Positions 1 through 10,197 are shown, numbered from the stretch's first letter. The stretch: 10,197 nucleotides of DNA from Promethearchaeati archaeon (GCA_013166835.1 JABLTI010000136.1:1-10197), one strand, 5' to 3'. Notes: generated from the letters alone by a model not told the origin. Numbers and translations: made by a program.

Positions 1-813
1 AAGTGAGCTCAGCTCTTCATAAATATCATTTGCAAAAGATTTGATTTTCCTAGGAGAATCAATTGACCAGTACATAATGTCTTCTTGAAATTGTGTGAAT
101 TTTACATAAGATCTAAATGGCCATAATTCTATATATGACGAGTAAATAGAAGATAGTTTAGTTAAAGGTAAAAAGATTATATTATAGACATTATATAAGT
201 AGTGGTACTCCACAAAGTCTCGATAGAAGTGAGGGAATAAATTGTTCAAGGAGCTTTGATTTACATAATCTGTTATTTTAAGAGTAAACGTGTGATTAAC
301 TATGGTATCAGTGAACAAGTAATCCCCTGAAAAAAAACTGGAATCATTTGATAATATATATGCCTCCGCATCCAGATTTTTAACTGAAATATCAGCAAGC
401 TTCGCAAAGAGATTTGCATCAATTCCATAGAGGGTTGTGCTATTATCTGTTAATGTAAAATTGTTGCCAAAAACATCCTGATCTATTATTGAACCAATTT
501 CTTCAACTTCAAATAATTTATAATTTTTCATCGAAGATTTTTCAATGGCTGAATTAAAACTATTAAGAAATTCAATTGAGTCGGATACTCCTCCCAAATA
601 AATATCTGGAAATCCTTCTATATCATGTTCACCAAGAAAATAGCTGATAGAGCCGTTTTTGAAATTTTGAAAATACTTACTTAAATTATGCGGATTAGCA
701 ATTTGTGGGACAAATAATACTGTAATAGAAGAGATTAGTAGTAAACTGAAGATAACTAGTGCTTTAAAAATGTCTTTTCGTTTTTCTAGAAGTTGGTAAA
801 TTATTAAAACCAT
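1..813 (-). CDS. Membrane protein, probable divergent FtsX/MacB-family ABC permease, N-terminal part (runs off the window start)
   Basis: Hand translation: ATG at 813 preceded by GGAGTGA-TAAAT, then 271 open codons to position 1 (MVLIIYQLLEKRKDIFKALVIFSLLLISSITVLFVPQ...STTLYGIDANLFAKL...NHTFTLKITDYV...NIIFLPLTKLS...). It has one N-terminal TM helix followed by a large soluble domain, the same layout as the start of the 940-aa permease. It is absent from the ORF track because no stop lies in the window. The family call is inference. Confidence 0.8.
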   Translation of the reverse strand, partial: MVLIIYQLLEKRKDIFKALVIFSLLLISSITVLFVPQIANPHNLSKYFQNFKNGSISYFLGEHDIEGFPDIYLGGVSDSIEFLNSFNSAIEKSSMKNYKLFEVEEIGSIIDQDVFGNNFTLTDNSTTLYGIDANLFAKLADISVKNLDAEAYILSNDSSFFSGDYLFTDTIVNHTFTLKITDYVNQSSLNNLFPHFYRDFVEYHYLYNVYNIIFLPLTKLSSIYSSYIELWPFRSYVKFTQFQEDIMYWSIDSPRKIKSFANDIYEELSSL

Positions 814-865
814 ATTTATCACTCCTTTACTCTTTCCATATTATTTCTTCTTTTATTGAATTTAG

Positions 866-873
866 AAAAAAAA
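866..873 (-). terminator. Oligo-T (T8) archaeal-type terminator candidate
   Basis: A8 on + (T8 on -) about 16 nt downstream of the stop of the 890..1450 gene. Confidence 0.4.
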
Positions 874-889
874 GTAGAGTATGAAAACG

Positions 890-1450
890 CTACATTAAAA
901 CTATTTTCAATTTTACTTTAATTTGACCACCGCCAAAAACTAAATAATTCAAATAATCTGTCAAATAATATGTTCCATAATTCTCATTATCACCAAAATA
1001 CCGTCCTATTGTATAAGATGAAGATTCTTGCCCGATGTGCTTAATGAGTTTAAAACCAATGTAAAGCTCATTTGCTGTAGAATCACTAAACTCTAAGCAA
1101 TAAGAGTACTCAATCTGCAGGTTATTAGTGTAGGTCTTTGGATAATAAACAATACCAGGCGGATAAACGTATTCGCGTCCATACCAGTCTTCATAATCCG
1201 AATCTGAATTTTGTAATCTGTCACCATAATAGCCAAATAATCTCTTATACTCAGGGATAAATCGCATTTCATACCATTCACTATTAGTGTAGTCAAGATA
1301 ATCGTTTACTTCAAGTTCTGTTACATAGATGTATATTTTGTCCATTTGTTTATGTGTGGAATTCATTATTTGTAGATTAGTTATTAATAGAGGTAAAAAT
1401 AAGAGTAAAGATACAAATAGGAATTTAATAATCCCATTCCTTTTTCTCAA
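890..1450 (-). CDS. Hypothetical Tyr-rich secreted or membrane-anchored protein (186 aa)
   Basis: TTG start preceded by AGAGGA. Basic N-terminus plus hydrophobic helix (MRKRNGIIKFLFVSLLLFLPLLI). About 25 Tyr residues. No recognisable family motif. Confidence 0.8.
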   Translation of the reverse strand: MRKRNGIIKFLFVSLLLFLPLLITNLQIMNSTHKQMDKIYIYVTELEVNDYLDYTNSEWYEMRFIPEYKRLFGYYGDRLQNSDSDYEDWYGREYVYPPGIVYYPKTYTNNLQIEYSYCLEFSDSTANELYIGFKLIKHIGQESSSYTIGRYFGDNENYGTYYLTDYLNYLVFGGGQIKVKLKIVLM

Positions 1451-1465
1451 TATATCCTCTCCGAT

Positions 1466-1493
1466 TTTATTTGCGGATTTTTCCGCACATAAA
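1466..1493. promoter_or_regulatory. Inverted repeat (12-bp arms, 1 mismatch, 4-nt spacer); candidate operator upstream of the 890..1450 gene
   Basis: TTTATTTGCGGA-TTTT-TCCGCACATAAA. It lies between a TTTAAA box (1511-1516) and the RBS/start at 1450. Confidence 0.5.
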
Positions 1494-1544
1494 CATAAGC
1501 TGTTTCATATTTTAAATTTTTTCGACTTTTGTCAGAAGTTAAAA

Positions 1545-1840
1545 ATGTTAGAGCAGATAGTATACAAAGACGGATTCGACAGTAAATAACCTAAAGAAGC
1601 GATTTGTTCAAAATACACTGATTTCTTGTCTGAGATATTAGCAATAAACAAGCTCATTATAGCCATACTCATACACCTTACCATGAAGTAACTAACGGAG
1701 TGTTTGCTATAGGAGGGTGGAAAGTAAATGAAGTTTGTTTTAAGGAGAACATTCGATGAAATGTTGGAGTGTACATTCTCATTGATGATGAGGAGAGAAA
1801 TAATCCAGTAAAATTGAAAAGATGGTTAATGAAGAAATAA
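1545..1840 (+). pseudogene. Degraded C-terminal fragment of a calcineurin-like metallophosphoesterase
   Basis: Joining two frames across a 1-nt shift near 1658 gives ...FLSEILAINKLI(Y)SHTHTPYHEVTNGVFAIGGWKVNEVCFKENIR*NVGVYILIDDEERNNPVKLKRWLMKK*. This resembles the family's C-terminal hhhGHTHxP...GxW motifs (AGC in place of GGC). Internal stops at 1587-1589 and 1757-1759, final TAA at 1838-1840. The left boundary is approximate. Confidence 0.5.
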
Positions 1841-1880
1841 AGGGAACTGGTGCGGGGGGCACAATTTGAACGCACGAACT
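1836..1880 (-). repeat. Direct repeat copy 1: degenerate tRNA-Leu 3' fragment (att-like)
   Basis: Minus strand reads AGTTC GTGCG TTCAAAT TGTGC CCCCCGC A CCA GTTCCCTTTATT, i.e. end of variable arm, T-arm, 7-nt acceptor strand, discriminator A and CCA (1848-1850). 36/45 identical to the copy at 5075-5118. Confidence 0.8.
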
Positions 1881-2112
1881 TAATGGCAGAACTGAAGATA
1901 AGATTGCACAGTCGAGGAAAAAGCGTACACCATGTAGGTTAGTTATTCACTAATTTTTTCCTGAGAGTAATTTTATCTTCATGAGCAATACTTATTGTTG
2001 GGTAATAATTGTAATTTAAAGTAAAAATTAGCTGTTCTAAACACAATTTTTTTACTTTTGATGTATGATATATATTATAAAGAAAATCAAGTCAATAAAA
2101 AGGGGGATTATA

Positions 2113-3711
2113 ATGTCACAAAACTCATTTGTGCAAATTGTAAGAAGGAGAGGAATTATTTTTTTAATTTTGTTATGGACATTACCATTAATAGGATATG
2201 TTTCATCACAAGGGCAAATCGCAAAAATAAATAATGAAGTAGAATCGAATGCCCTACATCCTACTTTAGATTTTACCATGATACTTGGGGGAAATGAGTC
2301 TGATATGGGATTTGCTATTGCAGTAGCAAGTGATGGAAACTACTATGTGACAGGTATAACAGAGTCATCTGACTTTCCCACAAAGAATGCTTACGATTAT
2401 ACCTTTAATGATAAAGAAGGTATTTATTCATATGGCGATGTTTTTGTTGCTAAAATAAGTGTTAATGGGGAGCTGTTGTGGAGTACCTTCTTAGGAGGAA
2501 GTATAAAGGAGGAGGGAAGTGGTATTGCACTTGATACTGATGGTAGCTGTTACATAACAGGTTGGACTGATTCAGAGGATTTTCCCACACAAAATGCATT
2601 TGATAATTCTTATGGTGGGGGTCAATATGGGGATGCTTTTGTTGCAAAGTTCGCTTCAAATGGGGAGCTTCTATGGTGCACTTTTCTCGGGGGAAGTGAA
2701 ACAGATGAAGCTAACGGAATTGCTGTTAGTGATGGGGTTTGTTATGTAACAGGTAGCACTGCTTCCTCTAACTTTCCAATGAAAAATGCGTATATTAGCA
2801 CTTTCAGCGGAGGTGAGAGATATGGAGACGCTTTTGTATCAAAGTTCTCTACTACAGGCGAGCTACTTTGGAGCACCTTTATAGGAGGTAGTGAGGATGA
2901 CTATGGAGATGATATAACTATAGCTAGTGATGGTAGCTGCTATATAACGGGAACAACTGAATCAAATAATTTTCCAATGAAAGATTCATTCGACGATAGT
3001 TTTAACGGGGTGATTGATACCTTTGTATTACAATTTTCCAAAAGGGACGCTCTTCGATGGAGTACCTATTTAGGAGGAGATGGAGCTGATTTTGCGAGTG
3101 GGATTGTTGTTGATAACAAAAATTGTTATATTGTAGGATCAACAAGCTCATACAATTTTCCTACTAAGGATGCTTCTAATAGTAGTTTTAGTGGATGGTA
3201 TGATGCCTATATTACAGCTTTCTCATTAAAAGGTTTAATGCAATGGAGTACTTATCTTGGAGGAAATTATTGGGATAAGGGATTAGGTATTGCTAAAGCT
3301 CTTGATGGTGGTTGCTATATTACAGGCACTGTTGAGTCAGAGGATTTTCCAACCTTAAACACACTTAATAATACATTTGCTGGTGTTTCAGATGCTTTTG
3401 TAGCAAAATATTCTTCTAAAGGTTTTCTTTTGTGGAGTACTTATTTAGGAGGAAAAAGTTTTGATATTGGAAGGGGGATTGCAACATCCAACAGCGATAG
3501 CTGTTATGTAATAGGAGAAACATCCTCAAGTGATTTTCCCATAGCAAACACTAGTAATAGCTCATATATAGGCAATGGAGATGTTTTTATAACGAACTTT
3601 AATGGATTAGCTACAATCACACCAACAATAACTATTTCTGGGTATGGCTATATTGGATTTGTATTTGTTATCCCTCTGTGTGCGTTTGTTTTCCGAAAGA
3701 GGAGAAAATAG
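2113..3711 (+). CDS. SBBP-repeat (seven-bladed beta-propeller) cell-surface protein with C-terminal membrane anchor
   Basis: Seven ~60-aa repeats (L/I)GG-x3-D-x-G-xx-IA...Y(V/I)TG-x-T-x-S-x-(D/N)FP...GDAFV-x-K...G-x-LLWST. N-terminal signal/TM segment (RRRGIIFLILLWTLPLIG). C-terminal TPTITISGYGYIGFVFVIPLCAFVFRKRRK. ATG 2113 is preferred over 2065 because it follows AGGGGG. Confidence 0.92.
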   Translation: MSQNSFVQIVRRRGIIFLILLWTLPLIGYVSSQGQIAKINNEVESNALHPTLDFTMILGGNESDMGFAIAVASDGNYYVTGITESSDFPTKNAYDYTFNDKEGIYSYGDVFVAKISVNGELLWSTFLGGSIKEEGSGIALDTDGSCYITGWTDSEDFPTQNAFDNSYGGGQYGDAFVAKFASNGELLWCTFLGGSETDEANGIAVSDGVCYVTGSTASSNFPMKNAYISTFSGGERYGDAFVSKFSTTGELLWSTFIGGSEDDYGDDITIASDGSCYITGTTESNNFPMKDSFDDSFNGVIDTFVLQFSKRDALRWSTYLGGDGADFASGIVVDNKNCYIVGSTSSYNFPTKDASNSSFSGWYDAYITAFSLKGLMQWSTYLGGNYWDKGLGIAKALDGGCYITGTVESEDFPTLNTLNNTFAGVSDAFVAKYSSKGFLLWSTYLGGKSFDIGRGIATSNSDSCYVIGETSSSDFPIANTSNSSYIGNGDVFITNFNGLATITPTITISGYGYIGFVFVIPLCAFVFRKRRK

Positions 3712-3761
3712 CTTCTCCACATTCCATACAAAAAGAAATATCACAAACGAAAGAATCAAAA

Positions 3762-3769
3762 TTTATATA
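3762..3769 (+). promoter_or_regulatory. Candidate archaeal TATA box (TTTATATA) with purine-rich upstream BRE-like sequence
   Basis: GAAAGAATCAAAA-TTTATATA in the intergenic region before the LVIVD gene, followed by a short palindrome TAAATC-N5-GATTTA (3772-3788). Weak evidence in AT-rich DNA. Confidence 0.3.
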
Positions 3770-3880
3770 GCTAAATCTAAATGATTTATTAAAATTTAAA
3801 CACTAAATTCAGTAAAATAGAATAAGGAATACTATGTAAATAATAATAAGAGAAGCAATTTGTTTGTGGTGATGGGAGTT

Positions 3881-5050
3881 TTGAAAAAAAGTGGAAGAAA
3901 AAAATCAATATCTACCTTATTTAAACTGTTTTGTATTTGTTTTCTTATCTATTCTATTTCAACGAATAATACAATCATTATAGGTAAGGGATTTTTCCTC
4001 ATAGATGAAATTAGTTTTACTTTGCTTGAAGAAGAACGTGGATATGTATTAGCTTTACAAGATGATCTACTTTATATTTTTGTATCAAATTCAACACAAG
4101 AAGGGTCATTTGCAGATTCTATTCGGATAATTGATGTTCAACAACCTGAAAATCCAGAAGTTGTTGGAAAGTATGATTTAGATAAAGATGATTGGGTTGT
4201 AGATTTAAAAATTAAAGATAATATTGCCTACATTCTAAGACAAATTTCCTTTTCAGGAGGGATTAATTGGACAGTAACACTTCTTAACATTACTAACCCA
4301 ACTAATCCTATTGAATTGGGGATTTCAGCTGTAGAAACAGCAACAAGTTATATTTTTGGTCTGGGTTCCTGGTGTTTGGTTAATTACAAAAACTACACTT
4401 ATGTTAGCACAGATTTCGAGTTGATAATTTTTAACACAAGCAATCCATCTTTACCAGAGAAAGTGACGAATTATACCTCCACTGGTGGGGAATTACATAT
4501 TAATAATGAATACTTATATCTTGTTTCTAGTGGAGTTAAAATCTATAATTTAATGAATCCAGTAAATCCCTTATTTTTAGGAGAAGTGAATACCACCAAA
4601 CATATTGTTGCTGGGAGTGAATTGTATGGAAATTATATTATCAACGCTTTTTGGTATTATGGGATACAAGTCTATAATTGCACTAATCCATATCATCCAA
4701 CTATTTGCTGGGATTTCGATTTTCCCGACAAAGAATTCTTTCCGGAAGGAACTATACATGACGTGGAGATAATCGGTGATAAGTTATTTACTGGTGCAAA
4801 TAGATTAAATGTCTTTGATCTAAGCGATCTACAAAAAGTGAAAAGGATTGCTCGATTAAGAATTGGAGATAAGTATATAGATCGATTAGAAGTTTCAGAG
4901 GATTATATTTATCTAACTGCTTGGGGAAGATTCAAAATCTACTCATACAAAGAGAACAATCTTCCACGTAACATAGGTATAGGAATTAGTATTGGAGTAC
5001 CAGTTGTAATTGTTGCTTCTCTTTTAATTTGGAGAAAAAAAAGGAAATAA
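3881..5050 (+). CDS. LVIVD-repeat beta-propeller cell-surface protein with C-terminal TM anchor
   Basis: Repeats IRIIDVQQPENP, VTLLNITNPTNP, LIIFNTSNPSLP, VKIYNLMNPVNP, IQVYNCTNPYHP, LNVFDLSD. N-terminal basic plus hydrophobic signal. C-terminal IGIGISIGVPVVIVASLLIWRKKRK. The start is uncertain (3860, 3872 or 3881); TTG 3881 follows GGTGA. Confidence 0.88.
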   Translation: MKKSGRKKSISTLFKLFCICFLIYSISTNNTIIIGKGFFLIDEISFTLLEEERGYVLALQDDLLYIFVSNSTQEGSFADSIRIIDVQQPENPEVVGKYDLDKDDWVVDLKIKDNIAYILRQISFSGGINWTVTLLNITNPTNPIELGISAVETATSYIFGLGSWCLVNYKNYTYVSTDFELIIFNTSNPSLPEKVTNYTSTGGELHINNEYLYLVSSGVKIYNLMNPVNPLFLGEVNTTKHIVAGSELYGNYIINAFWYYGIQVYNCTNPYHPTICWDFDFPDKEFFPEGTIHDVEIIGDKLFTGANRLNVFDLSDLQKVKRIARLRIGDKYIDRLEVSEDYIYLTAWGRFKIYSYKENNLPRNIGIGISIGVPVVIVASLLIWRKKRK

Positions 5051-5058
5051 GATTTCCT

Positions 5059-5066
5059 AAAAAAAA
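5059..5066 (-). terminator. Oligo-T (T8) terminator candidate downstream of the ABC operon and tRNA fragment
   Basis: A8 on +, between the convergent LVIVD and ATPase genes. Confidence 0.35.
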
Positions 5067-5074
5067 GTATTATT

Positions 5075-5139
5075 AATAAAAAGAACTGGTGCGGAAGCGC
5101 AATTTGAACGCGTAAACTCCTACGGAACCATAAACTCAA
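5075..5139 (-). repeat. Direct repeat copy 2: degenerate tRNA-Leu 3' half, from the anticodon loop (GAG?) to CCA plus trailer
   Basis: Minus strand reads TT GAG TT TATGG T TCC-GTA-GGA GTTT ACGCG TTCAAAT TGCGC TTCCGC A CCA GTTCTTTTTATT. Spacing matches archaeal tRNA-Leu, including the long variable-arm hairpin closed by GTA. The acceptor strand is 1 nt short and no 5' half or D-arm is present, so it is not a functional tRNA. Confidence 0.8.
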
Positions 5140-6797
5140 TTGTGTTTAGGAGTTATAACAAGCCCATCACTTTTTATCTTTCCATCTTCTAGAACTATTG
5201 CTCTATAACCATCTCTAATTAGGTTTATATCATGGGTTGCAAGAATGAAGGTACTAGTGGTTGTAGAATGCAAGTTGTATATTTTTTGAATCGCTTTCTC
5301 TGCAAGCTCTGAATCAAGATTTGCTGTAGGTTCATCTAAAATAATTAATTCTGGTAAATGGTATGATGCTATTGCTAACGAAGCTCTTTGAAGTTCACCA
5401 CCAGAAATTTCTAAAGGATAAGAGTCTTTCCTGCTAGTAATGTTGAATCTTTCGAGGGAATCAAACACTTTTTGACTCTCTAGATTTTTAATTATTTTAC
5501 CTGAAAACAAATCTTTTAGGTAAAAACTTTCAGTGATTGTTAAAAATGGATATAAAATTCCTTGTTGCGGGACCAAACTCATATGTTGTTTTCTAAACAA
5601 CGATTTTTGGGAATTGGATAAGGCACTAAAAGAGTTATCCAGAATTTGAATTTTGCCAGATGTTTCGTCTTCTAAGCCTGCCAATAATTTTATGAGAGTA
5701 GTTTTACCAGAACCACTTGGACCTAGAATAAATACCAATTCACCTGTTTTAATTTGGAGATCAATATTCGATATAGCCTTTACAACATTTTTGTTACTAG
5801 AATATTCCTTAGAGAGATTGTCTAATTTAATAATGATATCTGATTGTTGAAAATAATCAGAAGGAAGATCAGTCATTAAAAGCTCCTTTCTAGAGAATTT
5901 TATTTTGTCTAATTGTGGTTTATTAGGAGCTAGTCCATCAGGATGAGTTATTTGTACTTCACCTGTTTCTGTTACTATTATTTCAGCATTTTTAGTTAAA
6001 TTTAATACATTCATGACATAATCAGGCAAATGTATATTGTTTGTTGAATCTATTTGTAATTTAAACCTTAAAGGAAATTGCTTTTTTTGACCGAATGTTA
6101 ATTGCTCAGTAACATCCAACACTGAAGAAACTCGACCGTTCTTTATTTCACAAGTCTTATCCACTCCATCATGGAATCGGAGATCATGCGTAACTACTAC
6201 AAAGGTAGTGCCAAATTCAGAAGCAATTTGTTTTAATAGTGTTTTTACATTCAAAGTATTAACATTATCTAATTGACCAGTAGGTTCATCACATAATAAT
6301 AAAGGAGCTTCTTTTACAAGGGCACAAGCAATAGCAGTACGAATCAGTTCTCCTCCGGAGAAATTTCTTACAACACGATTTTTCAAATGAGTTATACCCA
6401 ATCTCTTGAGTATTTCATTAGTGCTTTTCTGAGAGTCAGTAAGAGAATTACTTTTTATATTCGATGCGAATTTTAAATTATCTTTAAGGGTTCCATCAAG
6501 GAATAATGTTCGTTCTGCAAATTGGTCAATAATCCCAACCATTTCTAATCTGTAGGTATTCAACTCTTTTAAGGACATTTGAGCTAAGTTGTATTCCCCA
6601 ACAAGTACTTCCCCACTGGAACAAGTGTCCAACCCAGCGAGAATATTAATTAAAGTAGTTTTACCAGAACCAGAGGGACCGATTATAGATAACATTTCTC
6701 CTTTTCGAACAATTAAATCACATCCTCTTAAAGCTGGAACTCGCAAGTTGGTCTCTTCGTCATAATAGATTTTTATAAGGTCTTTACATTCAATCAA
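5136..6797 (-). CDS. ABC transporter ATP-binding protein with two LolD/MacB/FtsE-type NBDs
   Basis: NBD1: GPSGSGKT, FSGGE, LLLCDEPTGQLD, VVVTHD. NBD2: GPSGSGKT, ISGGELQR, IILDEPTANLD, LATHD. TTG start, with RBS GGAGTGA (6804-6810) overlapping the permease stop codon. Confidence 0.95.
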   Translation of the reverse strand: MIECKDLIKIYYDEETNLRVPALRGCDLIVRKGEMLSIIGPSGSGKTTLINILAGLDTCSSGEVLVGEYNLAQMSLKELNTYRLEMVGIIDQFAERTLFLDGTLKDNLKFASNIKSNSLTDSQKSTNEILKRLGITHLKNRVVRNFSGGELIRTAIACALVKEAPLLLCDEPTGQLDNVNTLNVKTLLKQIASEFGTTFVVVTHDLRFHDGVDKTCEIKNGRVSSVLDVTEQLTFGQKKQFPLRFKLQIDSTNNIHLPDYVMNVLNLTKNAEIIVTETGEVQITHPDGLAPNKPQLDKIKFSRKELLMTDLPSDYFQQSDIIIKLDNLSKEYSSNKNVVKAISNIDLQIKTGELVFILGPSGSGKTTLIKLLAGLEDETSGKIQILDNSFSALSNSQKSLFRKQHMSLVPQQGILYPFLTITESFYLKDLFSGKIIKNLESQKVFDSLERFNITSRKDSYPLEISGGELQRASLAIASYHLPELIILDEPTANLDSELAEKAIQKIYNLHSTTTSTFILATHDINLIRDGYRAIVLEDGKIKSDGLVITPKHN

Positions 6798-6803
6798 ATC
6801 ATC

Positions 6804-9626
6804 TCACTCCTGACGTGCTGGTCTATATCTGTGGAATTGATTCCACAGTTCAAGCAACCAACCAATAGAAATACTCACTAAACAAAAGAATAATATAAGC
6901 ACAATAAACCAAACAGGTAACCATGGAACAAATTTCTTGTATGATTGTGGAATGCTAAAAAAGTAATCATAGACCGTATATAGTAACGTCGATGAAGTAA
7001 TTATTGAAATGACTAATGGAACAATTAATGCTAGAAGTAATTCTATTGAAAAATTAAACAAAATTTGATACTTTCTAGCACCAACATTATATTCAGTTTC
7101 AACGATTCGCATTTTTTGCTTGTAAATATTTCTAGCAGTTAGAAAACCATAAAAGATAACTAAAATAAATGTAATAATAGTGACTACTATGAGAAAATCA
7201 AAAGCGAATTTGTTCATAGTTAAATTCAGGGCAGATAATTCATCCTCGAAAGTTGTAACATGAATATCATAAGGTAAATTTTTAATCTCATTGGCAATTA
7301 AAGTGTTGTTAGCTGTAGAAGTGGTCCTTACTAATATGTAAGTATCATTTGAAACACTTGTAGAATAACCAAATTTATACCTTAATTGTGAAAAAGTCAG
7401 ATTACTCATTACAAGATTATATCGATCTTCAACTACTCTTTCAAGGAAGTTAGTTGATTTATAAGGTAAAAGTGGAAAACAATCAAACTTATTGATAAAA
7501 GTCATATCGTAAGAATCCTCATTAGAGGAAGTGATTTCAGAGCTTGTATAGAGTGCTTTTTTATCATAATTTTTTCTCTGGGCATATTTCGAACTCATCA
7601 TATAGGTCATGTTTGTTTCAAGCTTTGCAATATCTGCCAAAGTATATTTGCATGAATCAGGAAAATTAGCTGAAATAATATCGATAAAGTCTGTAACATT
7701 GTAAATATTTAATATGTCTACATAAAATGCTTTTTCAGAACTTGTTGCTTTTGCAATTCCTAATCTAATTGTGACAACTTCAACTTTGGTAAGTAAATCA
7801 ACATTAGTAATTGTAGATATATTTTCCATTAACATAGCATTATTATCAGCCCATGTCTGAATAATAACATCAGAAAAACCGACTTTGAGATTAGCTTCCA
7901 TTTCCAGATGATCATTTGACGATTTCGTCATTACTAAACCGGGAGAAACACAAAGACTGATAAGAAGCATTGCGAAAATGGCCCTTTTATAATCGTTGCT
8001 ATAAATGGATAATTGTTTTAAAGCTAATGTAAAGTAGCTTTTCCTTCGTTGCCAAATCTTTTTCCCAACATAGCGACATAAAAATACAAGCAATCGTGAT
8101 AAGATCAGGAAAAGTGATGTTATTGTTAACAGAATTCCAATGATCATTAGAACCAGAGAGATATTAAGTAATACTATGAATGTTGAGATAGCATAGTAAC
8201 TACTAGAAATATACAGCCAGCTTGGAAGACCAACGACAATGGTAATAACTCCGGAGATAAGGAATAAGGATTCCACAGAGGTAAATAATCTTCGAATGAA
8301 TTTCTTACGTTTAGATTTAAATATTTCAGAAGTGAGTTGTACTGTTCTTTTCGCAAAGACTGTCTCAGTAACAAAACCTCCTATAAGTAAAAGTAAAAAC
8401 AAAGCGAGAAGAATAAGAGAGACAGTTGGTTCTAGGAAAGCAGTGAAGTATAAGTTAATAGGAGTAACATCGAGACTGAACGAAGAAATTGCAAAGCCAA
8501 TAAGTATGCCTAGTGGAACACCAGCGAAGAATCCAATCGAAGCAGTAATGAGATTTTCAGTAAATAAGATTTTCCGTAGGGTAGCAAACTCTAAACCATA
8601 TGTTTTGAACAGCTTAAATTGAGCAGTCTTCTCAAAATTTCCGGTGTTAAATAATTCAATAATCAATAAACCAAATAAGAGAAAAATTGGTACCCCAAGA
8701 ACAAAAATAGTGAGTGTTTGGGAAAGCCAATTTAATTCAAAGCCAAAGATAAAGGATTCCAAATCAGAACATAAGTGAGAAATTTCATTATCGAAATATT
8801 CAAAATCTGAATATGCTTGAATGACATTTAATTCATTTGCAGTTGTTAAAAGATTATGTGAATCTTTAACATCAAATTGATAATTAAAGTCCATCTTGAA
8901 TGTTAAGCTGCCAGTTTGATTATAAGGATAATTTGCTACTATATCAACAAAAAGCTGGGGATTAGTGAAAAATAAATCCATTTTAAAATGATCGAATTCT
9001 TCGCCACTTACTCGAACAAATTCAAAGATATCATTTGAATAGCCATTTTGATAGAGAGTATGAGACACGCTATCAATTATACCAACAATTGTAAAATTGT
9101 GAGTATAGGATGTTCCATCCATTGTGACTTGTAAACCAAGTTGATCACCTACCTGGTAGTTTGGAGTTAACAAATCACTTGGATAGTAAATGAGCTCAGA
9201 CTCTGTGTATGGTAATCTCCCCTCAACAAATCTAGTAGTAAGAATATCAAATGCTTCCTGCTGTAAAGTTAATAAGCTTGCATCATAAATTTGAGTTAGA
9301 TTATAATTTATAGACTCCATTTTATATTGCATTGATGCAGTATAATTATCAAACATACCAGCAGCTAAGTCATCCAATGTTGCGTGGAGTTCATCAACAG
9401 CTAAAGCAAGATACGTATCAGTATCGTTTTTTAAACTTAAATATCCAGTGGAGATACTAACACGACTATCATCATACCAGTCATAATCTGTATAATAATT
9501 CTCAAATGATTTGTACCGATAATTAAACCAAGTTAATAAAAAAGTGGTCAATAATAAGAATAGAAAAAAACTAACGAGAACTGATATTAGCAATCTTTTC
9601 TTACTTGTTTTGAGAAAGACCCCCAT
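6804..9626 (-). CDS. FtsX/MacB-family (type VII) ABC transporter permease with duplicated architecture, 940 aa
   Basis: Two units of TM, large extracellular domain and 3 TM, with FtsX-like cytoplasmic motifs (EKTAQFKLFKTYG...ILFTENLI; QKMRIVETEYNVGARKYQILFNFSIE). MacB periplasmic-core-like motifs (VEGRLP, FTIVGII). Directly upstream of the cognate ATPase. Confidence 0.9.
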   Translation of the reverse strand: MGVFLKTSKKRLLISVLVSFFLFLLLTTFLLTWFNYRYKSFENYYTDYDWYDDSRVSISTGYLSLKNDTDTYLALAVDELHATLDDLAAGMFDNYTASMQYKMESINYNLTQIYDASLLTLQQEAFDILTTRFVEGRLPYTESELIYYPSDLLTPNYQVGDQLGLQVTMDGTSYTHNFTIVGIIDSVSHTLYQNGYSNDIFEFVRVSGEEFDHFKMDLFFTNPQLFVDIVANYPYNQTGSLTFKMDFNYQFDVKDSHNLLTTANELNVIQAYSDFEYFDNEISHLCSDLESFIFGFELNWLSQTLTIFVLGVPIFLLFGLLIIELFNTGNFEKTAQFKLFKTYGLEFATLRKILFTENLITASIGFFAGVPLGILIGFAISSFSLDVTPINLYFTAFLEPTVSLILLALFLLLLIGGFVTETVFAKRTVQLTSEIFKSKRKKFIRRLFTSVESLFLISGVITIVVGLPSWLYISSSYYAISTFIVLLNISLVLMIIGILLTITSLFLILSRLLVFLCRYVGKKIWQRRKSYFTLALKQLSIYSNDYKRAIFAMLLISLCVSPGLVMTKSSNDHLEMEANLKVGFSDVIIQTWADNNAMLMENISTITNVDLLTKVEVVTIRLGIAKATSSEKAFYVDILNIYNVTDFIDIISANFPDSCKYTLADIAKLETNMTYMMSSKYAQRKNYDKKALYTSSEITSSNEDSYDMTFINKFDCFPLLPYKSTNFLERVVEDRYNLVMSNLTFSQLRYKFGYSTSVSNDTYILVRTTSTANNTLIANEIKNLPYDIHVTTFEDELSALNLTMNKFAFDFLIVVTIITFILVIFYGFLTARNIYKQKMRIVETEYNVGARKYQILFNFSIELLLALIVPLVISIITSSTLLYTVYDYFFSIPQSYKKFVPWLPVWFIVLILFFCLVSISIGWLLELWNQFHRYRPARQE

Positions 9627-9796: not shown

Positions 9797-9819
9797 TTGT
9801 CATAACTATATCTTTAGGT

Positions 9820-10197
9820 TTATAGATAAAAGGATAAAGAACCATCACCATCATGTTCTTGAGGTTCGTCTTCATCAGCAAGACCAGGAAAAACTCTAAG
9901 ATACTCGTCATATCCATCAATAAAGATAGTTTCCATTGATACAGTATCAAGTCCACCGTGCTGATTTATCCAAGAATATTCTAAGAAGAAATAAGTCCAA
10001 CGTCCATTACTCTTGAGATCATAATCATACCCAAATCCATCTGCAGTACAAGTTGTTGCAACATATATATAGTCTTCATTTGGCATATCATCTAGTGAAT
10101 CAATAATTCCACCTGAGTTACATGAATCAAAAAAGAAGAATAGATCTACACCAGTTTCAAACTCTTCGAAATCATCCTCAATTTCAGTTTCCTTATA
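9820..10197 (-). CDS. Caspase-fold (clan CD, C14/C13-like) cysteine peptidase, C-terminal part (start outside the window)
   Basis: The frame stays open to the window end: YKETEIEDDFEEFETGVDLFFFFDSCNSGGIIDSLDDMPNEDYIYVATTCTADGFGYDY...NGRWTYFFLEY. It carries the hhhhDxCxSG catalytic-Cys motif (10108-10128) and the downstream NGxxTxxh motif. The 88-aa ORF in the track is an internal piece of this gene. Confidence 0.88.
   Translation of the reverse strand, partial: YKETEIEDDFEEFETGVDLFFFFDSCNSGGIIDSLDDMPNEDYIYVATTCTADGFGYDYDLKSNGRWTYFFLEYSWINQHGGLDTVSMETIFIDGYDEYLRVFPGLADEDEPQEHDGDGSLSFYL

Follow-up and report, generated by a model that had tools for sequence, protein, structure and literature searches.

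Partial tRNA-Leu genes separate integrase-free segments at a probable integration hot spot in a Promethearchaeati archaeon

Integrated elements of archaea were reportedly described by She et al. in 2001 in terms of 'gene capture'. In bacteria, cis-mobilisable elements are flanked by att sites, lack recombination genes of their own, stand in tandem at tRNA or tmRNA genes and can be moved by the integrase of a neighbour. In the tycheposon islands of Prochlorococcus, Hackl et al. (10.1101/2020.12.28.424599) describe elements in tandem with nothing but partial copies of the island tRNA between them; newer elements push older ones outward, and degenerate remnants and scattered partial tRNAs are found. 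They count 937 elements with a tyrosine or serine recombinase and report excision shown experimentally. For archaea, the sections of PMC8371274 drawn on here describe tandem integration at one locus, and explain integrated elements without an integrase by loss of the gene after integration. In Heimdallarchaeum, tRNA genes are integration sites of CRISPR-Cas operons, aloposons and a virus, and one element moved between tRNA sites (Wu et al. 2022, PMC8813620); the sections drawn on here make no mention of small partial-tRNA arrays.

The window analysed here (10,197 nt) is the whole of contig C83 of the source genome G000, a 260-contig bin estimated at 85% completeness and 6.8% contamination. Its right end (10091-10197) is identical to the first 107 nt of contig C189 (1-107, 100%), and its left end (1-421) matches contig C191 over 421 nt at 97.9%, with the permease open reading frame (ORF) of 911 aa unbroken over this join; a 5397-nt contig of assembly X1, which comprises C191 and window 1-1875, also spans the left join from fragment fC191 to repeat rep1. 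The joined stretch of 17.6 kb holds one intact tRNA-Leu(CAG) gene and four co-oriented orphan Leu 3′ fragments within 16.5 kb, in the order tRNA-Leu(CAG), E1, b, E2, rep2, E3, rep1, E4, fC191 when read in the minus-strand (tRNA) orientation (Table 1). The fragments set apart four segments (E1 to E4), 1.6 to 6.1 kb in size and free of integrase genes; each contains 1 to 5 ORFs that make up a coherent unit, and none is a copy of another. The profile search recovered no orphan Leu fragment outside this array in the assembly, its three further Leu 3′ ends belonging to intact genes. Among all well-kept tRNA 3′ ends of G000, 8 of 35 are orphans. Both ends of the 3.2-kb segment E3 are truncated because the intact tRNA sits 7.7 kb rightward on the next contig; a whole tRNA stands at one end of the entire array. 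The repeats are 3′-terminal pieces of tRNA-Leu genes, and the array is probably an integration hot spot made up of islets in tandem, either decayed or non-autonomous. It would be a known kind of genome hot spot, comparable to the Prochlorococcus islands and archaeal integrated elements above, where foreign DNA repeatedly adds islets, here beside a leucine tRNA gene of an archaeon.

Table 1. Features of the array (window positions unless a contig is named; sizes are given for segments)
Feature	Position or size	Strand	Description
rep1	1836..1883	-	orphan 3′ end of tRNA-Leu gene
rep1, T arm, acceptor 3′ strand and CCA	1848-1883	-	
rep1, T-rich trailer	1836-1847	-	~12 nt
rep2	5075..5128	-	3′ part of tRNA-Leu gene, older and more decayed
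rep2, parts	5075..5128	-	variable-arm end, T arm, acceptor strand (1-nt deletion), CCA, trailer
Intact tRNA-Leu(CAG)	C189 2768-2855		array head; flanked by polysaccharide deacetylase gene
E1	1.6 kb		S41 peptidase; between tRNA-Leu(CAG) and fragment b
E2	6.1 kb		ABC transporter module; between fragment b and rep2
E2, double ABC ATPase	5136-6797	-	Pfam
E2, FtsX-type permease	6804-9626	-	Pfam
E2, CarboxypepD_reg and caspase-like secreted protein gene, end	9820-10197	-	runs on into C189; split into two ORFs
E3	3.2 kb		two propeller surface-protein genes; between rep2 and rep1
SBBP beta-propeller surface protein gene	2065..3711	+	548-aa ORF; Pfam SBBP E 1.1e-26
Second beta-propeller surface protein gene	3860..5050	+	396 aa; Pfam Beta_propel 23.5 bits (cut-off 22.4)
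GTPase-like gene remnant	1880..1943	+	64 nt; 78% to C59:7038-7101
E4	5.3 kb		phosphoesterase pseudogene remnant, small secreted-looking ORF, second ABC transporter; between rep1 and fC191
Calcineurin-like metallophosphoesterase pseudogene remnant	1634..1840	+	C-terminal part, ~65 codons, in-frame stops
E4, right part	1..1450	-	186-aa secreted-looking ORF 890-1450; start of 911-aa putative permease 1-822

Helper elements and their integrases have been identified for the bacterial cis-mobilisable elements, whereas no helper was found for this array. SSV-type elements carry split integrase pieces, int(N) and int(C), over their att sites; here the small ORFs overlapping the repeats (1678-1875 and 4939-5139) gave no family matches in Pfam or PHROGs, and a phosphoesterase remnant lies under ORF 1678-1875 on the opposite strand. 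The array is like an integron in that co-oriented recombination sites follow one another in a row and the gene cassettes lying between these sites contain no recombinase, and the earlier suggestion that E3 is one unit of an integron-like array fits as far as a row of segments separated by tRNA-derived sites is concerned. The integron features themselves are absent: the array begins with a tRNA gene and not with an integrase, attI and common promoter, its sites copy the T arm and acceptor strand linearly and are not attC-type imperfect hairpins (no Rfam attC match at E<=10), and a segment may contain as many as five ORFs, on either strand. Compared with the Prochlorococcus islands (10.1101/2020.12.28.424599), our array shares the tRNA-gene sites, tandem units, partial tRNAs, remnants and ordinary cargo such as transport operons, and differs in its archaeal host, in segments and islands that on examination carried no recombinase and in that excision is experimentally shown for the Prochlorococcus elements only. 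It also resembles the archaeal integrated elements of the cited sections (PMC8371274), which attach at the 3′ end of a tRNA, integrate in tandem and may lack an integrase gene, whereas the Heimdallarchaeum elements (PMC8813620) are large, with giant proteins, an integrase and a homing-endonuclease-like gene, in comparison to 1.6-6 kb of ordinary genes here.

Direct repeats had been placed by the first-pass annotation at 1836-1880 and 5075-5118, and global alignment reproduced them with 36 of 45 columns identical, eight mismatches that are all transitions and one gap. Their shared core, GAACTGGTGCGG-N4-6-CAATTTGAACGC, occurs twice in the window and in none of 200 dinucleotide-preserving shuffles. 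ARAGORN found no whole tRNA gene in the 10,197 nt and an Rfam scan of the window gave no tRNA match at E<=10; the proposed tRNA-Leu origin of both repeats was borne out, as rep1 is identical to the intact tRNA-Leu(CAG) on C189 at 36 of 38 positions (blastn E 1.8e-08) and a Leu 3′-end profile (nhmmer, whole genome plus loci) recovered both, with E-values of 8.4e-10 for rep1 and 4.5e-08 for rep2. Similarity searches confirmed the predicted identity of the repeats as 3′ ends of minus-strand tRNA-Leu genes, comprising T arm, acceptor strand, CCA and a trailer of ~12 nt; both lie on the minus strand, as co-oriented tRNA 3′-end direct repeats do in a tRNA-targeting island. At rep1 no 5′ part of tRNA-Leu is present, and the place of the 5′ two thirds is taken by the 64-nt GTPase-like remnant, whose match on C59 is the end of a 436-aa GTPase-like ORF convergent to tRNA-Ala(TGC); the remnant also lies beside rep1 in contigs of X6 and X8. 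The tRNA-Leu likeness of rep2 reaches ~5128, further than had been noticed, and extends into the variable arm (CGTAGGAGTT), with 43/51 identity to the 3′ half of tRNA-Leu(CAG) in the relative G005 and 43/52 to tRNA-Leu(CAA) of G000. Comparison of T arms assigned b, rep1 and fC191 to the G000 type and rep2 to the G005 type of the tRNA-Leu(CAG) 3′ half.

Comparison of the ABC transporter module E2 among relatives indicated that rep2, judged by its position, belongs to this neighbouring module. E2 is a three-gene unit that five of the 12 genomes from the order contain, in six copies altogether (permease 59-92% identical), with the same gene set and edges in the five genomes and bounded by tRNAs or tRNA fragments, while the DNA outside it differs from genome to genome in every one. 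Repeat rep2 begins 8 nt past the stop codon of the ABC ATPase gene and has the orientation of that gene; in G005, G009, G007, G010 and the metagenome contig L055, too, a tRNA 3′ fragment directly adjoins this stop. A whole tRNA bounds one end of the module in G005 and G010: in G005, E2 has intact tRNA-Leu(TAG) on one side and on the other a copy of that tRNA's 3′ end (33/35), and in G010 its two sides are intact tRNA-Pro(TGG) and a 3′ fragment of tRNA-Pro (~24/27 by eye). Both ends are fragments in G009, at a site where G000 has neither tRNA nor island, and the end fragment in G007 is of the G000 type and just 27 nt long, unlike rep2. The tRNA-Leu(TAG) site (C56-like flank) that holds E2 in G005 is occupied in G010 by an unrelated island of 8 kb. 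In G005 and G007, the tRNA-Leu(CAG) locus orthologous to that of the array (deacetylase and M20 flank) contains different segments, accompanied by Leu fragments, and pairs of tRNA and fragment are present in four other genomes. E3 is absent behind E2 in G005, G009 and G007, and G007 lacks E4 there as well, despite flank proteins that are 93-97% identical.

Strain variants in independent assemblies break at the tRNA fragments. At rep1, X12 has 98 other letters in place of 1878-1956, and from the 30 that are shown a tRNA-Leu anticodon arm can be read, with anticodon GAG; rep1 is a truncated tRNA-Leu gene whose X12 counterpart looks full length, judging from those 30 visible letters without the 5′ acceptor strand and from the 98-nt length. 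An X12 contig with the joint 3733->1844 links 3733 straight to a Leu 3′ end, so that the SBBP gene alone lies between two Leu 3′ ends and the second propeller gene is not covered. In X6 the DNA beyond 1844 is different and E4 is absent. Repeat rep2 is bridged by contigs of X1 (4106-7804) and X6 (4493-5242) and the rep1 region by contigs of X6 (1845-2301) and X12 (1380-2968, via the tRNA form), while X1 has a break between unitigs at rep1 with no bridging contig; X1 depth is even over most of the window (~46-81 per bin), with 111 in the rep1 bin.

The two repeats had been read as attL and attR of an SBBP/propeller cassette, and we reject this matched pair on the evidence of position, type and strain variants: rep2 is the positional match of the fragments behind the ABC ATPase stop, rep1 (G000 type) and rep2 (G005 type) best match different versions of tRNA-Leu(CAG), the related strain X12 seems to carry a full tRNA-Leu(GAG) at rep1, the DNA past rep1 differs in strain X6, and no tRNA fragments adjoin the paralogous SBBP/propeller pairs found elsewhere in the genus. 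Contigs of four runs, in which rare forms are dropped, contained no clean single-repeat E3 site, no joint removing E3 and no circle junction.

The absence of an integrase claimed for this segment agreed with all of our searches (Pfam and PHROGs on the array ORFs, with no recombinase match; PF00589 and PF16795 over the genome), and no recombinase was found in the islets and islands examined here and in relatives. The sole PF00589 match in G000, on C61 outside the array, is XerA-like (117 bits against a cut-off of 220), and PF16795 had no match. Of the 24 PF00589 matches in the genus, the only two on the Leu-array contigs that were examined are weak and stand 31 and 43 kb away from E2 (G009:C32). 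As the only recombinase in G000 is XerA-like and none lies near the arrays, site-specific recombination is therefore inferred from anatomy alone.

Elements carrying a copy of the tRNA 3′ end as attachment site would have recombined with the tRNA gene, which was kept whole as the displaced 3′ end came to lie on the far side of the insert. Several such rounds, with later deletions, could then leave partial tRNAs standing in a row and cargo in the intervals, the recombinase having since been lost or having acted in trans. Under this model rep2 would be the displaced older 3′ half of tRNA-Leu(CAG) and the far end of E2, and rep1 a second tRNA-Leu gene that may have lost its 5′ part in this lineage, with E4 inserted behind it. 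E3 would be the stretch caught between two such sites. The type order G000, G000, G005, G000, G000 along the array is no single simple series at one tRNA and needs two neighbouring tRNA-Leu genes or separate events. The exact edges of three-gene E2 at both tRNA-Leu and tRNA-Pro, with no room for an integrase, fit better with mobilisation in trans than with simple decay. A sign of decay is the phosphoesterase pseudogene remnant adjoining rep1.

Alternatively, E3 itself may be a non-autonomous cassette moved in trans, within an integron-like array where cassettes are gained, lost and shuffled at tRNA-derived sites. We regard this as unlikely, even though every segment is coherent (1 to 5 ORFs) and free of a recombinase, E2 keeps constant edges at tRNA-Leu(TAG), the tRNA-Leu(CAG) locus and tRNA-Pro, the two Leu 3′ ends in X12 enclose only the SBBP gene, G007 lacks E3 and E4 behind E2 in a closely similar flank, and the orphan tRNA 3′ ends of G000 are as frequent as noted above. 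An ATC_hydrolase-like gene, which stands behind Leu fragments in G005 and G007 but between fragments of another acceptor sequence on G000 C224, is a further point in its favour. This is opposed by the lack of a recombinase candidate adjoining any array and of an E3-removing joint or circle junction in the contigs of the four runs (rare forms dropped), by the difference in type between rep1 and rep2, and by the fragment-free paralogous pairs; there is also no fragment between the two propeller genes that would account for the X12 form, and the second propeller protein as query found no relatives on viral contigs or in species genomes.

That the fragments are working RNA, either split tRNA-Leu 3′ halves or tRNA-like processing or terminator signals behind minus-strand operons, is scarcely credible: the abutment of a fragment on the ATPase stop, kept in five genomes, and a rep1 T stem that pairs 5/5 (three G-U) would suit such a role, but the 5′-end pattern of tRNA-Leu matches only the intact genes on C106 and C189, leaving no orphan 5′ half in the assembly (85% complete), and fragments vary from 27 to ~45 nt and decay freely between species. 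Furthermore, CCA is replaced by CCT or CTG in G009, rep2 has lost an acceptor base, the tail is absent from 4/4 paralogous ABC modules with readable downstream DNA (C30, C21, C24, C253), and the G010 tail is a tRNA-Pro piece matching the tRNA at the opposite end of its module. Chimeric metagenome assembly at short repeats, or segmental duplication of the tRNA-Leu region without a site-specific event, is very improbable. The fragmented and partly contaminated bin, contig ends at fragments (C191 ends in one, G007:C143 153 nt past one) and the X1 unitig break at rep1 would allow for it, whereas independent assemblies bridge rep2 (X1, X6) and the rep1 region (X6, X12), X1 depth is mostly even apart from the rep1 bin, the segments between fragments are not mutual copies, and tRNA and fragment pairs recur in four other genomes. 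Counting against the integration hot spot are the type order of the fragments and the exact edges of E2 discussed above, the short E2 end fragment of G007 and the two fragment ends in G009, as well as the want of an islet recombinase, the 30 letters on which the X12 tRNA is read and the unitig break in X1.

The ORF map agreed with the claim that the repeats enclose both plus-strand genes, as the two propeller genes are the only long plus-strand ORFs in the window and the remaining long ORFs are on the minus strand. Within E4, the phosphoesterase remnant (SHTHTPYHEVTNGVFAIGGWKV...R*NVGVYILIDDEERNNPVKLKRWL, with stops) has intact homologues adjoining tRNA-Ala (G010:C11) and tRNA-Pro (G005:C33, where Pfam Metallophos matches the protein), and forms the tRNA-proximal end of a decayed helicase-phosphoesterase island. 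The 911-aa putative permease of E4 had no Pfam or PHROG match, and the rest of it on C191 is followed by two ABC ATPase genes (Pfam ABC_tran) and then fC191. With regard to the names given earlier to the E3 genes, SBBP was upheld while LVIVD was not (13.8 bits against a cut-off of 20.2), only Beta_propel passing for the second protein, whose closest relative (G007:C101, 79% aa identity) has another gene context. The SBBP gene product scored 85.7 bits, under the cut-off, with the NCBIfam SBBP lipoprotein family, and its sequence reads as having a hydrophobic segment at the N-terminus and another at the C-terminus with a basic tail; the true start of the gene may be the ATG at 2113 behind GGGGGA.

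Alignment of the two direct repeats, rep1 and rep2, covered 45 columns with 36 identities, eight transitions and one gap, and their shared core was found twice in the window and in none of 200 shuffles. No whole tRNA was called within the window by ARAGORN or Rfam; on the minus strand both repeats read as a T stem, a TTCAAAT loop, the second T stem, an acceptor strand, discriminator A, CCA and a T-rich trailer, and a 13-sequence profile of Leu 3' ends recovered rep1 with E 8.4e-10 and rep2 with E 4.5e-08. The direct repeats of the first-pass annotation, with mismatches that are all transitions, were therefore correctly seen, and the profile identifies them as tRNA-Leu 3' ends. Rep1 was identical to the intact tRNA-Leu(CAG) gene on contig C189 at 36/38 positions (blastn E 1.8e-08), and rep2, which reaches 5' into the variable arm, showed greater decay with one acceptor base gone. 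Across the whole genome (G000) the profile returned three intact genes (CAA on C227, CAG on C189, GAG on C106) and exactly four orphans, all in one array, so that the intact tRNA missed in the first pass is that of the next contig to the right.

The genome bin comprises 3.56 Mb in 260 contigs (84.75% complete, 6.79% contamination, G+C 33.7%), its tRNA genes bear introns and encode CCA, and the window is its contig C83 of 10,197 bases. The first 107 bases of C189 are identical to the last 107 of the window, and the first 421 bases of the window align, reversed, to the beginning of C191 with 97.9% identity (9 mismatches). The permease frame is unbroken over the latter join, giving 911 codons, and one 5397-base contig from sequencing run X1 spans C191 and window positions 1-1875. 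The joined contigs C189-C83-C191 form a 17.6-kb array, listed in tRNA orientation in the table. An alternative raised in the first pass, that the repeats delimit one unit of an array separated by tRNA-derived sites, came close to the mark, since a row of Leu fragments headed by intact tRNA-Leu(CAG) was found. Such fragments are the exact points at which metagenome assemblies break at these islands, which makes them useful for joining contigs.

Coordinates of the 17.6-kb array (first nine rows, in tRNA orientation) and of related features in G000 and its relatives
Feature	Position	Content	Length or match
Intact tRNA-Leu(CAG)	C189, 7.7 kb to the right		
E1		S41 peptidase gene	1.6 kb
Fragment b		tRNA-Leu 3' end	33/37 to tRNA-Leu(CAG)
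E2		Secreted CarboxypepD_reg/caspase-like protein gene, FtsX-type permease, double ABC ATPase	6.1 kb
rep2	window 5075 to ~5128 (-)	tRNA-Leu 3' end	
E3	genes at window 2065-3711 and 3860-5050 (+)	SBBP propeller and second propeller gene, opposite strand	3.2 kb
rep1	window 1836-1883 (-)	tRNA-Leu 3' end	
E4		Phosphoesterase pseudogene remnant, 186-aa ORF, 911-aa putative permease, two ABC ATPases	5.3 kb
Fragment fC191	contig end	tRNA-Leu 3' end	37/39
First E2 gene, G000	window 9820-10197 and C189:108-974	Two ORFs	
Broken tRNA-Leu(CAG), 5' part	L022 (G007:C143) 10819-10900	Decayed after anticodon	
Broken tRNA-Leu(CAG), 3' end	L022 19752-19780	Directly after E2	last 27 nt
tRNA-Pro fragment	C231:3232-3259	2.9 kb behind tRNA-Pro; TldD/PmbA gene pair between	
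Decayed fragments	C224:795-834 and 1968-2010	Leu-like T arm, other acceptor sequence; flank ATC_hydrolase-like gene	
Two orphan tRNA 3' ends	C20:2458-2534 (G000)	49 nt apart	
Orphan tRNA 3' ends	C93:4712-4739; C152:7749-7776		
527-545-aa protein copies	L063:1122-2723; L064:14557-16191; L065:2249-3859; L069:4048-5631; G000 C246:3005-4630		
tRNA-Leu(CAA) locus L007	C227:9664-9830 (G000)	Introns in D arm and after anticodon	
Inverted repeat	C5/C156 junction (joined ~3270-3300, G000); L019 (reverse complement 9805-9842)	CTGAGCGGG...CCCGCTCAG	

Our analysis of the ABC-transporter module E2 showed that its permease type occurs in six copies (59–92% identity) in 5/12 genomes of the order. DNA 3' of the ATPase stop was readable in five E2 copies and in L055, the one contig obtained from a metagenome scan, and in every readable case (G000, where it is rep2, G005, G009:C32, G007, G010 and L055) a tRNA 3' fragment followed the stop immediately. 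The far end of E2 is an intact tRNA-Leu(TAG) gene in G005, whose 3' end is copied by the end fragment (33/35), and an intact tRNA-Pro(TGG) gene in G010, where the fragment matches the 3' end of tRNA-Pro (~24/27 by eye), while G009 has decayed Leu fragments at both ends. The DNA outside E2 differed in each genome. At the E2 site of G009, G000 has two adjacent contigs (144-nt overlap) free of island and tRNA, and at the tRNA-Leu(TAG) site, which has the same C56-like flank in both genomes, G005 carries E2 and G010 an unrelated 8-kb island. Judged from these sequences, E2 has the features expected of a unit inserted into tRNA genes on more than one occasion, and rep2 belongs to this module and not to the surface-protein genes. 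A tRNA fragment as the general tail of paralogous ABC operons was rejected, as it was present in none of the four with readable downstream DNA. The 96% identity of E2 to its G007 copy is no outlier that would signal recent transfer, as the flanks are 93–97% identical in protein, and an empty tRNA-Pro site in G000 was discarded for lack of synteny between the G010 flanks and C231. As a separate observation, the first E2 gene forms one ORF of 408–412 aa in G010, G005 and G009 but two ORFs in G000, owing to a frameshift, a stop codon or an error of assembly.

The origin of rep2 was examined through its closest relatives. A G000-type T arm (GTGCG/CGTGC) is common to b, rep1 and fC191; rep2 best matched either the 3' half of tRNA-Leu(CAG) of G005 (43/51 including the trailer) or tRNA-Leu(CAA) of G000 (43/52). 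The tRNA-Leu(CAG) gene of G005 lies at the orthologous locus, has deacetylase and M20 peptidase genes in its flank as in G000, and is followed by other segments and two Leu fragments. In G007, the closest relative, whose flanks show 93–97% protein identity to those of G000, the 5' part of tRNA-Leu(CAG) adjoins the deacetylase gene and its 3' end lies 8.9 kb on; the insert between them holds E2 together with another, distinct tRNA-Leu(CAG) that is inverted, as if it had brought a replacement tRNA gene. Rep2 would then be the older, displaced 3' half of tRNA-Leu(CAG), a reading supported by the G005 match and by the broken gene of G007. Descent from the two-intron tRNA-Leu(CAA) gene on C227 (81% over 54 nt) is less likely than this local origin, which is favoured by the positional match in relatives and by the inclusion of the trailer in the G005 alignment. 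A split tRNA joined by trans-splicing was rejected, as a search of the 85% complete assembly found no orphan 5' half. The all-transition differences between rep1 and rep2 thus appear to reflect two tRNA versions and decay, and no recent duplication.

Rep1 showed a different history. Contigs of run X12 were mostly 90–99% alike to the window, and one of them covered 1380-1877 and 1957-2968 with 98 other letters between the two stretches. On the tRNA strand, the 30 of these letters beside 1880 read as a fully paired 5-bp anticodon stem whose loop, ATGAGGA, is that of tRNA-Leu(GAG), and then a variable arm; we infer that this gene is intact in X12, as read from 30 of the 98 letters, with the 5' acceptor strand outside them. 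At the same positions G000, X6 and X8 carry 64 nt that resemble, at 78%, the 3' end of a GTPase-like gene adjoining tRNA-Ala(TGC) on C59; an rRNA spacer origin for window 1880-1943 was dropped, as it is the end of this ORF. Beyond rep1, from 3 nt after CCA, X6 has 836 letters unlike E4. Directly behind rep1 in the window lies a metallophosphoesterase gene remnant with in-frame stops, and intact homologues are the first genes behind tRNA-Ala in G010:C11 and tRNA-Pro in G005:C33, where they head helicase-phosphoesterase islands of 21 kb (ending in an Ala fragment) and 14 kb (ending in two Pro fragments). The X12 tRNA form, the 64-nt replacement and the phosphoesterase remnant together show decay by deletion at rep1, which is a truncated tRNA gene.

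These results leave unsupported the first-pass proposal that the repeats are the attL and attR sites of a surface-protein cassette, as rep1 and rep2 are of different kinds and rep2 goes with E2. Evidence on the mobility of segment E3 itself was mixed. In G005, G009 and G007 other DNA lies behind E2 in place of E3, and one X12 contig links 3733, a position immediately past the SBBP gene, through four letters to the 3' end of a tRNA-Leu, with the second propeller gene uncovered there. No tRNA fragment lies between the two propeller genes, and none accompanies paralogous SBBP/propeller pairs (46–49% identity; G007:C196 and elsewhere). No joint removing E3, and no circle, was found in contigs of X1, X6, X8 and X12, which drop rare forms; absence was counted only where a contig joins across, which excluded X6 and X8 over E2 and E4 and X12 over 3741-5100, and the joint from 1876 to 7463 and others with one side below 30–40 letters were set aside as likely repeats. 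The second propeller protein as query found no relative in species genomes or viral contigs. It is therefore unlikely that E3 is a cassette in its own right, and given the mixed evidence we treat it as DNA caught between two attachment-site remnants. For the beginning of the second propeller gene (window 3798-4135) X1 contains two forms, one identical to the window except for a 3-letter insertion after 4027 (depth 56) and one with 34 differences in 341 letters (depth 17). The GAA insertion after 4027 occurs in 3/3 runs covering the site, and the two forms suggest co-existing alleles of this surface protein.

Orphan tRNA 3' ends are general in the genome and the genus. In G000, 8/35 well-kept tRNA 3' ends, among them the tRNA-Pro fragment on C231, lacked a nearby 5' acceptor partner, and a loose Leu 3'-end pattern gave 5–11 matches in 11/11 genomes as compared to 0–4 for the 5'-end pattern, rough counts since the former, at 2 mismatches, also catches some other tRNAs.

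The array ORFs gave no recombinase match against Pfam or PHROGs, which bears out the first-pass remark that the cassette lacks an integrase. The only PF00589 match in G000 was a 352-aa XerA-like protein on C61, scoring 117 bits against an XerA cut-off of 220 and conserved as a single copy in each of six genomes of the genus. An SSV-type split integrase was rejected, as small ORFs over the repeats had no matches and a PF16795 search of G000 returned nothing. In the genus PF00589 had 24 matches in 9/11 genomes; the only ones on the array contigs examined were two weak matches in G009:C32, at 31 and 43 kb from E2, and the integrase contexts examined (G007:C127, G009:C17, G005:C9, G004:C10, G007:C37) showed neither an adjoining tRNA 3' end nor a helper. 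The large tRNA-Ala and tRNA-Pro islands were also without a recombinase. Helper elements are often left unbinned and the bins are incomplete, so this absence is unproven. A protein of 527–545 aa recurred in islands at tRNA-Pro (G005), at tRNA-Ala (G010) and tRNA-Leu(TAG) (G010:C6), on G007:C235 and on G000 C246, usually beside a DEAD-box helicase and a metallophosphoesterase. The two copies scanned had a weak LAGLIDADG_3 match, one of them with HTH domains, and the other copies are 35–40% identical to that of G000. This protein may be part of a defence system or a site-specific nuclease; in the Heimdallarchaeum study, a homing-endonuclease-like gene was suggested as the integration factor of one element, and integration at tRNA genes was reported (PMC8813620).

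Accretion of att-flanked elements without recombination genes occurs in streptococci. The anatomy of the array matches the islands of Prochlorococcus, where elements lie side by side with only partial copies of the island tRNA between them, older elements are pushed outward by newer ones and degenerate remnants are scattered (10.1101/2020.12.28.424599). Its integrase-free tandem form also agrees with archaeal elements, for which a further source describes tandem integration and possible absence of the integrase after loss (PMC8371274). The array is a further case of this known type of tRNA-site island, and a literature search confined to papers proper found no account of partial-tRNA arrays in Asgard genomes.

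A broader interpretation, that the genus runs a cassette system without local recombinases, in which small units bounded by copies of tRNA 3' ends are moved by an enzyme encoded elsewhere and E3 is one cassette, is in our estimation unlikely. The cargo of such a system would be ordinary genes for transporters, peptidases, surface propellers and defence, which would be gained, lost and swapped among tRNA-Leu, tRNA-Pro, tRNA-Ala and other sites; candidates for the enzyme are the integrase of a helper element, the XerA-like recombinase in its enlarged form, and the LAGLIDADG-plus-HTH protein of the larger islands. Every island examined lacks a recognisable integrase, which may be trivial, through loss or unbinned helpers, or may hint at unrecognised cassette movement, and the point of real interest is what moves, or once moved, units that lack an integrase, the ABC module among them, between tRNA-Leu and tRNA-Pro genes. 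The array shows at base level how flexible genes accumulate behind the tRNA genes of an Asgard archaeon, with a cargo of transporters, peptidases, cell-surface propellers and defence remnants that varies even between ~95% identical strains, and the fragments help to flag recent gene gains in genomes widely used to reconstruct which genes the archaeal ancestor of eukaryotes had.

Two further loci were noted during the tRNA survey. At L007 ARAGORN called a tRNA-Pyl(CTA) with a 939-nt intron, which looks spurious, as by eye the gene is tRNA-Leu(CAA) just behind a SecY-like gene. The conserved inverted repeat listed in the table precedes the same gene in G000 and G009 and may represent a terminator or a small RNA.
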